Positions 35,293 to 53,358 of a DNA stretch of 64,000 bases are shown here, in pieces; within the stretch, counting starts at the first letter, position 1, and each line of letters begins with the position of its first letter. The notes beneath the pieces were generated by a model. The model made no database searches, was not told the DNA's origin, and saw only the letters and a list, made by a program, of their open reading frames with translations. Origin of the DNA: Escherichia coli (GTDB lineage Bacteria > Pseudomonadota > Gammaproteobacteria > Enterobacterales > Enterobacteriaceae); the NCBI RefSeq assembly GCF_046105845.1, contig NZ_CP151004.1; one strand, given 5' to 3'. Made by a program: the position numbers and the translations under genes.

Positions 35293-35521
35293 TCCTCTGA
35301 TTTACAAAAGACGCTAATTCGTCTTCCATAAACCATGACGATTAAGATTTATACATAATGCGCTGCATTGAGGAATTCCCTGAATGTGACGCAAATCACT
35401 TCAAAGAGTGAGCAACAGTCAGTATCATCATGTGAGTTAAACCCTCGCCGCCTGACGGTGAGGGTTTTCTTTTGGGTATGTTTATCTGCGACACTCGCAG
35501 TACCGACGACATGGAGTAAAA

Positions 35522-44604: not shown

Positions 44605-45693
44605 ATGCCTCACAATCCTATCCGCGTGGTCGTCGGCCCGGCTAACTACTTTTCACATCCAGGAAGTTTCAATCACCTGCACGATTTTTTCACTGATGAA
44701 CAGCTTTCTCACGCGGTGTGGATCTACGGCGAACGCGCCATTGCTGCGGCGCAAACAAAACTTCCGCCAGCGTTTGAACTGCCAAGGGCAAAGCATATTT
44801 TGTTTCGCGGCCATTGCAGCGAAAGCGATGTACAACAACTGGCGGCTGAGTCCGGTGACGATCGCAGCGTGGTGATTGGCGTCGGCGGCGGCGCACTGCT
44901 CGACACCGCGAAAGCCCTCGCCCGCCGTCTCGGTCTGCCGTTTGTTGCCGTTCCGACGATCGCCGCCACCTGCGCCGCCTGGACACCGCTCTCCGTCTGG
45001 TATAACGATGCCGGACAGGCGCTGCATTATGAGATTTTCGACGACGCCAATTTTATGGTGCTGGTGGAGCCAGAGATTATCCTCAACGCGCCGCACCAAT
45101 ATCTGCTGGCGGGGATCGGTGACACGCTGGCGAAATGGTATGAAGCGGTGGTGCTGGCTCCGCAACCAGAAACGTTGCCGCTAACCGTGCGGCTGGGGAT
45201 CAATAATGCGCAGGCCATTCGCGACGTCTTGTTAAACAGTAGCGAACAGGCGCTGAGCGATCAGCAAAAACAACAGTTAACGCAATCATTTTGCGATGTG
45301 GTGGATGCTATTATTGCTGGTGGTGGGATGGTCGGTGGTCTGGGCGATCGTTTTACGCGTGTGGCGGCGGCCCATGCCGTGCATAACGGTCTGACCGTTT
45401 TGCCGCAAACCGAGAAGTTTCTCCACGGCACCAAAGTCGCCTACGGAATTCTGGTGCAAAGCGCCTTGCTGGGTCAGGATGATGTGCTGGCGCAATTAAC
45501 AGAGGCGTATCAGCGTTTTCATCTGCCGACTACGCTGGCGGAGCTGGAAGTGGATATCAATAATCAGGTGGAGATCGACAAAATGATTGCCCACACCCTA
45601 CGTCCAGTGGAATCCATTCATTACCTGCCAGTCACGCTGACACCAGATACCTTGCGTGCAGCGTTCGAAAAAGTGGAATCGTTTAAAGCCTGA
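44605..45693 (+). CDS. ybdH: Iron-containing alcohol dehydrogenase family protein (hydroxycarboxylate dehydrogenase)
   Basis: 362 aa; GVGGGALLDTAK glycine-rich motif. Confidence 0.88.
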   Translation: MPHNPIRVVVGPANYFSHPGSFNHLHDFFTDEQLSHAVWIYGERAIAAAQTKLPPAFELPRAKHILFRGHCSESDVQQLAAESGDDRSVVIGVGGGALLDTAKALARRLGLPFVAVPTIAATCAAWTPLSVWYNDAGQALHYEIFDDANFMVLVEPEIILNAPHQYLLAGIGDTLAKWYEAVVLAPQPETLPLTVRLGINNAQAIRDVLLNSSEQALSDQQKQQLTQSFCDVVDAIIAGGGMVGGLGDRFTRVAAAHAVHNGLTVLPQTEKFLHGTKVAYGILVQSALLGQDDVLAQLTEAYQRFHLPTTLAELEVDINNQVEIDKMIAHTLRPVESIHYLPVTLTPDTLRAAFEKVESFKA

Positions 45694-45702
45694 CGTACAC
45701 AT

Positions 45703-45900
45703 TTAGCAGCAGCGCGCGCCGCCTTTTCCACCGTAGCGCGCGTCCTGCCGCTCACGGAAAAACTCCTCGTAGGTCATCGGCGTTTGATCGGGATGGTTAA
45801 CCCGCATATGTTCGACATAGTTGTCGTAATCAGGCATACCAATCATCAGCTTCGCCGCCTGACCTAAATATTTTCCGGCTTTTGCCAGTGAATCAAACAT
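45703..45900 (-). CDS. ybdD: Small DUF466 protein downstream of cstA
   Basis: 65 aa from [19 protein letters not shown]...; conserved pairing with cstA. Confidence 0.85.
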
Positions 45901-45959
45901 CAATACCTCCGGTAAACAGGTTGCTGATAGAGTGCATTAATAGCTATCAACGCGCTCGG

Positions 45960-46050
45960 TCAGTCCCCTCGCCCCACAGGAGAGAGGGTTAGGGTGAGGG
46001 GGAACCCTCGGCACCATGCCAACATTCGCCAACATCCCCCCTCACTCTGA
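45960..46050. repeat. GC-rich repeat element in the ybdD-cstA spacer
   Basis: Three copies of a CCCCTC(A/G)CC(CC) motif in direct and inverted orientation (45965-45975, 46001-46012 inverted, 46036-46047). Confidence 0.4.
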
Positions 46051-46052
46051 CT

Positions 46053-48158
46053 TTAGTGCGCGCCTTTCGCCTGCGCCACGATCTCTTCGACATTTTCCGG
46101 CATCGGCTCATACGGCGTTTCTTTCGCCGTTGGCTTCGGCTCTTTCAATGCCGCCAGTGCAGTCTTAATCGAGAACAGCGCCAGAACCACCACGACCACC
46201 ATAAAGAAGATGGTTAACCCGGCATCCAGACGGTTGTTGAACACCAGTTGCGCCAGTTGTGACTCAGTATACTGCGACGGAATATTGCCGCTGTCGATCA
46301 TTGCCTGGAACTTGTTAGCAATCGCCAGGAAGCCGACCTTCGCATCCGGGCTAAACGCTTTCTGCCAGCCAGCGGTCAGAGTACAAATCAGCAGCCAGGC
46401 CGTTGGTACCAGCGCCACCCAGGCGTAACGTTGACGTTTCATTTTGAACAGCACCACAGCACAGAGCATCAGCGCCATCCCTGCCAGCATCTGGTTGGCA
46501 ATACCAAACAGCGGCCACAAGGTGTTAATACCGCCCAGCGGATCGACCACGCCCTGATGCAGGAAGTAGCCCCACGCCAGCACGCACAGCGCCGTTGCCA
46601 GCAGGTTAGCAGGCAGTGAATCGGTCCTTTTCAGGCCCGGAGACACCACGCCCAGCAGATCCTGCAACATAAAGCGCGCAGCACGCGTACCTGCATCCAC
46701 CGCCGTCAGAATAAACAGTGCTTCAAACAGAATGGCGAAGTGATACCAGAACGCCACATCCATCATGCCGCCCAGCGCACCGTGCAGAATGTAGGCCATC
46801 CCCACCGCCAGGGTCGGCGCACCGCCCGCACGGGAAATGATCGACTGTTCACCCACTTCGCTGGCAATCTGGTTGAGCGTATCTGGTGTAATGCTAAATC
46901 CCCAGCTACTCACCACTTGCGCTGCAGAAGCGACCACATCCGCCGTCCCTGCCGGAGCCAGCACCGCCATCGGGCTGTTCATAGCGAAGTACACACCCGG
47001 ATCGATGATACAGGCGGAAACCAGCGCCATAATCGCTACGAAGGATTCCATTAACATCCCGCCGTAGCCGATAAAACACGCCTGCCCTTCGTTCGCCAGC
47101 ATCTTCGGCGTGGTACCGGAAGAGATCAGCGCATGGAAGCCAGACACCGCGCCACAAGCGATGGTGATAAACAGGAACGGGAACAGGTTACCGGTCCATA
47201 CCGGGCCAGTGCCATCAACAAATTTGGTCAGCGCAGGCATGGTCAGCGTCGGGCGCATGATCAGAATGCCTACCGCCAGACCGACGATAGTCCCGATTTT
47301 CAAGAAGGTTGAGAGGTAGTCACGCGGGGCCAGCAGCAACCACACCGGCAGCACCGCCGCCACGAAGCCGTAACCCACCAGCATCCAGGTCAGCTGCACG
47401 CCGGTAAAGTCAAAGTACGGTGCCCAGGTCGGACTTTCTGCCACCCAGCCGCCAGAGATAATGGCGAAAATCAGGAACACCAGGCCAATCACCGACACTT
47501 CGCCAATACGCCCCGGACGCAGATAACGCAGGTAGATCCCCATAAACAGCGCCAGCGGAATGGTGAACGCAACGGTATACGTTCCCCACGGGCTATGAGT
47601 CAGGGCTTTCACCACGATCATCGCCAGTACTGCAAGGATAATGACCATGATCATAAAGCAGGCCACCAGCGCTATCACCCCGGCGGTTGGCCCCATCTCT
47701 TCTTTGACCAACTCACCCAGCGAGCGACCATCGCGGCGCGTAGAAACAAACAGCACCATGAAATCCTGCACCGCACCGGCGAGAACCACCCCGGCGAGCA
47801 GCCAGATCATCCCCGGCAGGTAGCCCATTTGCGCTGCCAGCACCGGCCCAACCAGCGGACCTGCTCCGGCAATGGCCGCAAAATGGTGACCGAACAGCAC
47901 TTTCTTGTCCGTCGGCACATAGTCCAGCCCGTCGTTATGGCGCACCGCTGGCGTCATACGCGTCGGGTCAACCGCCAGCACATTTTTGGCGATATACAGA
48001 CCATAAAAACGGTAAGCGATCAGATAGATACAGACCGACGCCACCACAATCCACAGCGCGTTGATCTGTTCCCCACGATTTAAAGCAATATATCCCAGAG
48101 CAAATGCTCCCATTACAGAGAGCACTGTCCAGACGAGGTATTTCCCTGATTTGTTCAT
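46053..48158 (-). CDS. cstA: Carbon starvation protein A (peptide/pyruvate transporter)
   Basis: 701-aa polytopic membrane protein MNKSGKYLVWTVLSVMGAFALGYIALNRGEQINALWIV... Confidence 0.95.
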   Translation of the reverse strand: MNKSGKYLVWTVLSVMGAFALGYIALNRGEQINALWIVVASVCIYLIAYRFYGLYIAKNVLAVDPTRMTPAVRHNDGLDYVPTDKKVLFGHHFAAIAGAGPLVGPVLAAQMGYLPGMIWLLAGVVLAGAVQDFMVLFVSTRRDGRSLGELVKEEMGPTAGVIALVACFMIMVIILAVLAMIVVKALTHSPWGTYTVAFTIPLALFMGIYLRYLRPGRIGEVSVIGLVFLIFAIISGGWVAESPTWAPYFDFTGVQLTWMLVGYGFVAAVLPVWLLLAPRDYLSTFLKIGTIVGLAVGILIMRPTLTMPALTKFVDGTGPVWTGNLFPFLFITIACGAVSGFHALISSGTTPKMLANEGQACFIGYGGMLMESFVAIMALVSACIIDPGVYFAMNSPMAVLAPAGTADVVASAAQVVSSWGFSITPDTLNQIASEVGEQSIISRAGGAPTLAVGMAYILHGALGGMMDVAFWYHFAILFEALFILTAVDAGTRAARFMLQDLLGVVSPGLKRTDSLPANLLATALCVLAWGYFLHQGVVDPLGGINTLWPLFGIANQMLAGMALMLCAVVLFKMKRQRYAWVALVPTAWLLICTLTAGWQKAFSPDAKVGFLAIANKFQAMIDSGNIPSQYTESQLAQLVFNNRLDAGLTIFFMVVVVVLALFSIKTALAALKEPKPTAKETPYEPMPENVEEIVAQAKGAH

Positions 48159-53170: not shown

Positions 53171-53195
53171 ATCATCCTCCACAAAATGATAAAGG

Positions 53196-53216
53196 CTTTA
53201 ATAATGATTATCATTT
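53196..53216. promoter_or_regulatory. Fur box in the divergent entC/fepB promoter region
   Basis: TAATAATGATTATCATTTA closely matches Fur consensus GATAATGATAATCATTATC; a weaker second match lies at about 53315-53335. Confidence 0.6.
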
Positions 53217-53358
53217 ATATTTTCGGTCGCTAACCTAAAAGCAAACGCGCACTATGTCAACTCTTGAGGTAACGCAATCTGCAACTCGGGGTTGCATCTG
53301 GTTGTGGTTACAATGAAAATGAGAAGCATTAACTTCATTAATAACAGGAAGCTGATTT

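Follow-up and report, generated by a model that had tools for sequence, protein, structure and literature searches.

The cstA-ybdD spacer and its repeated motifs

The window, that is, the whole stretch of 64,000 nt of Escherichia coli DNA that we analysed, contains cstA and ybdD next to each other on the minus strand. The open reading frame of cstA covers positions 46053-48158, with the TAA stop codon at 46053-46055 according to sequence and annotation, and ybdD is found at 45703-45900, with its annotated ATG at 45898-45900. As the cstA frame extends from 46053 and the ybdD ATG to 45900, the two co-oriented genes are separated by a spacer of 152 nt (45901-46052). A GGAGG ribosome-binding site (45906-45910) accompanies the ybdD start codon, so that start codon and binding site occupy 45898-45910 on the minus strand. 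Across the spacer, a stretch of 196 nt is 100% identical to E. coli strain A22. The gene hcxA (44605-45693, plus strand) is convergent with ybdD, with 9 nt between the two stop codons (window 45693-45703).

In the original prediction, the spacer had been described as containing three copies of a C-run motif separated by purine-rich segments. We find the motifs on the plus strand as CCCCTCGCCCC (45965-45975), GGGTGAGGGGG (45992-46002) and CCCCCCTCACTC (46036-46047). They are not due to chance, as the 19-mer CCCTCACCCTAACCCTCTC, searched with up to three mismatches, occurs once in the window compared to 0.00 expected occurrences in shuffled sequences. The motifs form inverted repeats, where 45965-45974 is complementary to 45992-46001 (10 nt, 90%) and 45988-46002 to 46037-46051 (15 nt, 87%). 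The motifs are thus real, but they are parts of one known composite element and not free-standing copies. Furthermore, the count of three missed a degenerate fourth block, GAGAGAGGG, between motifs 1 and 2 (45980-45988). This block is the purine-rich segment seen between these two motifs, whereas motifs 2 and 3 are separated by a segment rich in C and A. A direct-repeat search additionally detected a tandem duplication of 10 nt (GCCAACATTC/GCCAACATCC, 46018-46037, plus strand) between the BoxC element described below and the G-rich block behind the cstA stop codon.

A BoxC repeat with a probable remnant of an inverted partner

The element in the spacer is almost certainly a copy of the enterobacterial repeat BoxC, which is also known as PIT element or TMECO. 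A profile match, a published K-12 entry and the dispersal of the core lead to this assignment, and the earlier suggestion of an intergenic repeat family is thereby borne out. We searched with an nhmmer profile of 21 published BoxC members from which the K-12 cstA-ybdD orthologue had been excluded, and obtained a match over 49 nt at 46004-45956 on the minus strand (44.1 bits, E = 9.4e-13, model positions 2-50 of 51). The K-12 orthologue itself is identical to entry eco:7_BoxC in supplementary file 69 of PMC2267715. When the search for further copies was extended to whole genomes, the 56-nt core (45955-46010) was found to be a dispersed repeat that is present in 5,425 of the 5,426 complete E. 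coli genomes. A genome contains it at 17 places in the median and at 31 at most, and nearly all of these places are chromosomal. Within the window, pattern and profile searches found no second BoxC copy; a profile match at 35442-35466 (E = 8.6) was dismissed as chance.

The BoxC family was first noted in the early 1990s. The table of Petrillo et al. 2008 (PMC2267715) gives E. coli BoxC as 56 bp with about 32 copies in K-12, a number that comes from a survey cited there. According to Holder et al. 2015 (PMC4666352), BoxC is the same as the PIT elements of Maher and as the TMECO motif, where PIT denotes a potential intrastrand triplex motif (Hoyne and Maher 2000; PMC4666352). The number of copies varies strongly among strains: in some E. 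coli, such as strain 536, we detected only two to five places, in others 25-31. This agrees with the strain-to-strain spread of BoxC/TMECO copies in PMC4666352, which ranges from one copy in IHE3034 to 29 in strain 55989.

The copy in the window is of type A, which is characterised by a TAA/TTA second loop, and covers 45956-46004 on the minus strand, as delimited by the profile match, the K-12 orthologue and the dispersed core. Its C-rich strand is the mRNA strand of cstA-ybdD, on which it reads TTCCCCCTCACCC-TAA-CCCTCTCTCC-TGT-GGGGCGAGGGG-ACTGACCGA. Like the family as a whole, it is intergenic, being located behind the stop codon of cstA and before the start codon of ybdD, and it has a GC-rich imperfect dyad symmetry of two C-blocks and one G-block, which is evident from the inverted repeat and from the folding of the core into a hairpin. 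Block 1, CCCCCTCACCC (45992-46002, minus strand), corresponds to motif 2 and pairs on the mRNA with the G-block at 46036-46047 in the inverted-repeat search and in the RNA folds. Block 2, CCCTCTCTCC (45979-45988, minus strand), was located by pattern search, profile alignment and fold. Block 3, GGGGCGAGGGG (45965-45975, minus strand), corresponds to motif 1 and constitutes the 3' arm of the BoxC core hairpin according to the sequence, the inverted repeat and the folds.

Block 2 carries one C-to-T change compared to the consensus CCCTCTCCCC. On the mRNA strand, this change results in a G-U wobble in the core stem; on the G-rich strand, it results in one mismatch to the TMECO pattern (GGGNGAGGGNNNGGGNGAGGG). 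The strict pattern given in PMC4666352 is CCCTCNCCC N3-6 GGGNGAGGG N3 GGGNGAGGG, and the plus strand of the window copy reads CCCTCGCCC-CACAG-GAGAGAGGG-TTA-GGGTGAGGG, i.e. type A with the usual 'mm' mismatch. In our pattern search the strict pattern was missed by a single base in the middle block GAGAGAGGG, and we thus regard the window copy as a degenerate TMECO member. The K-12 orthologue also deviates from the strict pattern, as its last block contains an insertion, and Table 1 of PMC4666352 does not list it. Compared to PIT/TMECO, the window copy is the same element seen on the G-rich strand, and its locus is likewise hypervariable.

Candidates for a G-quadruplex were inspected by eye on the plus strand. 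There are only three runs of at least three G (GGG, GGG and GGGGG) and an additional GG; thus, no canonical four-tract motif is formed. For consensus oligonucleotides, a triplex agrees better with the published NMR data than a quadruplex does (PMC4666352).

BoxC also occurs as inverted pairs of a type A and a type B copy, and the third motif is best explained as what is left of a truncated inverted partner, namely its terminal block. This reading is based on the alignment of the spacer, block by block, with the K-12 inverted pairs in alx-sstT, ygfF-gcvP, hrpB-mrcB and fepB-entC. The aligned stretch consists of the last G-block of the type B partner, a similar linker, the type A BoxC and the 3' flank. 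In the window, the G-block GTCAGAGTGAGGGGGG (46036-46051, minus strand; motif 3 on the plus strand), which is supported by the inverted repeat, the folds and the pair-module alignment, directly follows the cstA stop codon, and this stop codon occupies the place of the partner's middle block. As the G-run behind the stop codon aligns with the partner's last block, the spacer would represent a truncated inverted-pair module. The linker at 46005-46035 (minus strand), defined by the same alignment as a homologue of the linker in the K-12 pairs, separates the G-block from BoxC and covers most of the tandem duplication. The complete spacer thus reads on the mRNA strand as cstA stop, AGTCAGAGTGAGGGGGG, linker, BoxC and ACTGACCGAG. 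This anatomy fits the description of palindromic TMECO pairs as often partly deleted with hairpin formation still possible (PMC4666352). Compared to a typical BoxC, the window copy differs in the single C-to-T change of the second block and in the reduction of the inverted partner to one block; nothing essential differs.

One of the pairs used for the alignment has no counterpart in the window strain. Between fepB and entC (window 53183-53358), the strain lacks a segment of 186 nt that K-12 carries and that constitutes an inverted BoxC pair (TMECO 7 and 8). The outer flanks of this segment look by eye like inverted repeats, so that the whole resembles a long palindromic MITE-like unit. In K-12, a very strong 'orphan' Term-seq 3' end has been mapped at this locus at 624,680 (minus; 103,563 reads, LB OD 0.4). 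It is located immediately 5' of the BoxC pair and not after it, and has no counterpart in the window; it might mark a processing site or a premature stop, and strains without the module would then lack it.

Spacer alleles in E. coli and related genera

Three major spacer types are found at this site among the 5,426 complete E. coli genomes. The K-12 type contains BoxC followed on its 3' side by an inserted REP (182 nt; 3,701 genomes), the type of the window contains BoxC only (152 nt; 401 genomes) and the type found in PCN033 and ST131 contains no BoxC (112 nt; 1,189 genomes). The REP of the K-12 type is inserted between BoxC and ybdD, at about 45935-45945 of the window. In the alignment, the K-12 REP (GCCGGATAAGGCGTTCACGCCGCATCCGGC) corresponds to a gap in the window sequence, in line with the earlier impression that the repeat is not a classical REP.

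The BoxC-less allele, E. albertii and the GTDB representative of E. coli retain the G-block together with a pairing C-block similar to 'GTTCCCCTCAC', and in the BoxC-less E. coli allele a hairpin is still predicted directly after the cstA stop codon. As this remnant resembles the 5' end of BoxC, the comparison hints at a deletion of blocks 2 and 3 and not at an empty site. Neither the BoxC-less E. coli allele nor E. albertii has the 10-nt duplication of the linker. The BoxC-less B2-type spacer (PCN033, positions 510-621) has a second small hairpin, GCCCTC...GAGGGC, that is followed by ATTTGTA. This hairpin matches the single hairpin of Citrobacter spacers and thus suggests an older hairpin that has been replaced by the REP in the K-12 type.

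Across Enterobacterales, ybdD could be recognised next to 26 of the cstA-ybdD spacers, and 25 of these contain a stable GC-rich hairpin of varied sequence. Outside of E. coli, single BoxCs are found in Leclercia and in an Enterobacter MAG, whereas inverted BoxC or BoxC-like pairs are present in E. cloacae, E. asburiae, Pluralibacter sp., Pseudocitrobacter faecalis, Enterobacter sp. Ag1 and Cedecea neteri. A hairpin of the CCCTCTCC...GGAGAGGG type or another GC hairpin occurs in Citrobacter, P. gergoviae, Superficieibacter, Pseudescherichia, Kluyvera, Edwardsiella, Aeromonas and Mangrovibacter. The BoxC copies are closely alike, and the spacer hairpins of different species cannot be aligned as one family. 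In betaproteobacteria with an identifiable ybdD, most spacers are 0-25 nt long and have no hairpin.

The pairs in Pseudocitrobacter, Pluralibacter, Enterobacter and Cedecea (loci L010, L011, L016, L022, L023 and L024 of our comparison, positions about 2254-2410) show the opposite order to that in E. coli, with the C-rich-first copy leading. Judging from this arrangement, either BoxC has been inserted repeatedly at the cstA-ybdD site or it has persisted there for a long time and been rearranged.

The polymorphism of the site has to be weighed against a functional reading. BoxC is dispensable at this position, as 22% of the genomes (the 1,189 of the BoxC-less type) lack it there, and we count this against a role at the RNA level. 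The spacer might then be a neutral leftover, i.e. the decaying remnant of a BoxC pair in a tolerant spacer, with RNA 3' ends as the passive result of a stable hairpin. We consider this unlikely, although several observations agree with it: at least three major alleles segregate, the middle block of the copy is mutated and its partner truncated, the window strain lacks the whole fepB-entC pair module of K-12, and PMC4666352 reports no function and hypervariable loci. On the other hand, a hairpin has been kept in nearly all of the Enterobacterales spacers and in those E. coli and E. albertii alleles that lack BoxC, and the only substitution in the core stem leaves a G-U wobble on the mRNA strand. 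An RNA 3' end detected in vivo in K-12, which is described below, also argues against mere decay; here, function and passive consequence are hard to separate from the present evidence.

The indel-rich spacer, where BoxC and REP are each present or absent and a 10-nt duplication is found, could also reflect an element acting at the level of DNA. In the course of replication or repair, its G-rich strand would adopt a non-B conformation, such as an intrastrand triplex of the purine motif, and local instability would be the main effect, as proposed in PMC4666352. The same study found TMECO loci to be more variable than control sites and detected a triplex in vitro by CD and NMR, for consensus oligonucleotides only. 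However, DMS footprinting in vivo gave no support for a stable triplex (PMC4666352), and the extra mismatch in the middle G-block of the window copy should weaken any triplex. Instability would moreover be an effect and not a use, and it is compatible with a role of the RNA. We thus regard a DNA-level element as improbable, though less so than the terminator and protein-binding readings discussed below.

RNA structure, RNA 3' ends and a possible role of the element

The sense RNA of 45955-46052 (minus strand) is predicted to fold into a closed structure of two hairpins (dG -50 kcal/mol, z = -3.07, 0 of 200 shuffled sequences as stable), so that folding of the spacer RNA supports the idea of a stable structure. 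Hairpin 1 is formed by the G-block, as its 5' arm, and BoxC block 1, with the linker in its apical part; hairpin 2 is the BoxC core. Both are closed by an outer stem in which GUCAG from the G-block (46047-46051) pairs with CUGAC (45959-45963, minus strand). The ybdD start codon and the GGAGG site both remain outside of the BoxC structure. The fold of the K-12 spacer is not better than that of its shuffles (z = -0.68), since any sequence with a G-run and a C-run folds well.

The mapping of RNA 3' ends provides in vivo data for the spacer. Supplementary file 1 of Adams et al. 2021 (PMC7815308) lists a K-12 Term-seq 3' end at 632,098 (plus; LB OD 2.0), whose register in the table we checked against the thrL entry. 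It falls on the G in ...GGGGCGAGGGGACTGACCGAG|CGCG. Reading downstream, the last G of BoxC precedes it by 10 nt and the outer stem by 4 nt, and ybdD follows 84 nt later. By eye, using the K-12/window alignment and the window sequence, we mapped this 3' end to position 45955 (minus strand) of the window. The end is weak, with 1,686 reads in one condition only. By searching the table of PMC7815308 for BoxC blocks, we found four more K-12 BoxC copies whose core hairpin is followed by a 3' end after 3-4 nt: 3,781,065, which is the primary end of lldD, 4,231,270, 847,200 and 3,959,467. The ends occur with BoxC in both orientations, including two in the G-rich orientation that were detected with a shorter motif. 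BoxC hairpins thus coincide with stable RNA 3' ends in vivo.

Such an end, together with a GC-rich hairpin directly after a stop codon, would also be expected if cstA and ybdD were separated by a rho-independent terminator or attenuator. Downstream of the hairpins, the sequence continues with ACUGACCGAGCGCG, and neither hairpin is followed by a U-tract. A terminator scan of 45600-46400 detected no terminator-like site on either strand, which upholds the earlier view that the spacer does not contain a simple rho-independent terminator. Earlier tests of PIT/BoxC, as summarised in PMC4666352, likewise found no terminator activity, along with no promoter activity and no effect on RNA polymerase; the same summary gives no bias in position or orientation relative to genes across the genome. 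We therefore consider a terminator or attenuator very improbable. It is said, from work by Hwang and colleagues in 2018, that ybdD is needed together with cstA for pyruvate uptake, and such a joint requirement would favour read-through.

An independent small RNA gene or a protein-binding site, the latter having been part of the original prediction, is at least as hard to sustain, and we give it hardly any credence. Apart from the repeated motif itself nothing speaks for it. A promoter scan found no promoter-like site on either strand of the spacer. No Rfam family reached its gathering threshold in 45500-46500 at permissive E-values; the best matches were to eukaryotic miRNA and snoRNA models, the top one being mir-423 with 26.3 bits compared to a gathering score of 71. 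Furthermore, the BoxC literature that we found reports neither a binding protein nor a transposase linked to BoxC.

REP and BIME elements act as stabilisers of mRNA 3' ends in operon spacers, for example in malE-malF. The BoxC copy resembles them: it is a short palindromic repeat, rich in GC and without a U-tract, that is located between two cistrons, and RNA 3' ends are found at the base of its hairpin. The same role as an exonuclease barrier can be proposed. It belongs to an unrelated sequence family, as the REP consensus (GCCGGATAAGGCG...CGCATCCGGC) is missing from the spacer of the window. Since no terminator activity was found in the earlier tests, the likeliest mechanism would be a barrier to exonucleases or a stop for trimming, as for REP.

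In the mechanism that we propose, the element would act at the RNA level, once the cstA-ybdD transcript has folded into the closed structure in which GAGUGAGGGGGG pairs with CCCCCUCAC in hairpin 1, the BoxC core forms hairpin 2 and the outer stem holds both together. As a U-tract is missing, this structure would not behave as an intrinsic terminator. It might instead stop 3'-to-5' exonucleases or mark the point to which transcripts that end further downstream are trimmed back. The full cstA-ybdD message would then be accompanied by a stable RNA of cstA alone, in the way known for REP elements in other operons. An RNA structure that couples the expression of cstA and ybdD, as had been suggested before, is thus plausible. 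That the copy at this site defines or protects an RNA 3' end as a REP-like hairpin is a tentative reading, whose chances we see as nearly balanced, leaning slightly towards doubt. BoxC identity and an RNA 3'-end role are jointly the best explanation for the element, and we consider this explanation reasonably probable.

The other strand of the same DNA may serve hcxA in a similar way. In the plus-strand RNA of 45988-46051, a hairpin of 15-18 bp is predicted between BoxC block 1 and motif 3. The terminator scan of 45600-46400 found no terminator-like site for hcxA, including the interval between hcxA and ybdD. As the two genes converge with 9 nt between them and no terminator-like hairpin, hcxA transcripts must run antisense through ybdD, and the plus-strand hairpin may act on this convergent read-through. 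In K-12, a region of Rho termination on the opposite strand peaks at 631,994 (PMC7815308), which corresponds to window position 46058, about 7 nt past the plus-strand hairpin; this position is only approximate, because the score was computed from windows of 800 nt. The region is consistent with the BoxC module also marking the end of hcxA read-through.

More generally, BoxC core hairpins might constitute a second, unrecognised REP-like class of elements for RNA 3' ends that works in either orientation, with a single module serving both transcripts at cstA-ybdD and with selection for a hairpin in the Enterobacterales spacer. This generalisation is speculative, and we think that it is doubtful as a whole. 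If it were true, one strand would cap the cstA-only mRNA and thereby set the ratio of CstA, a transporter, to the small YbdD protein that partners it, whereas the other would cap hcxA read-through. Selection for a spacer hairpin would then explain why BoxC, REP or simple GC hairpins are found in this spacer across Enterobacterales.

The BoxC copy between cstA and ybdD is real but ordinary, and would at most serve as an RNA hairpin at the end of the cstA message. Its value as a discovery is small, since the repeat family has had its name for three decades and a published list already includes the K-12 copy of this site. Some value remains because BoxC is still without an accepted function, and in the literature we found no functional work on BoxC, PIT or TMECO later than Holder et al. 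2015 (PMC4666352). Mildly new are the anatomy of the truncated pair, the allele frequencies, the near-universal hairpin in Enterobacterales spacers and the association of BoxC hairpins with Term-seq 3' ends. Such ends after the hairpins of four K-12 copies and of the cstA-ybdD copy point to a simple REP-like role for the family. With BoxC and REP, BoxC only, or neither, the three natural spacer alleles of E. coli offer a ready comparison for the balance of CstA and YbdD.
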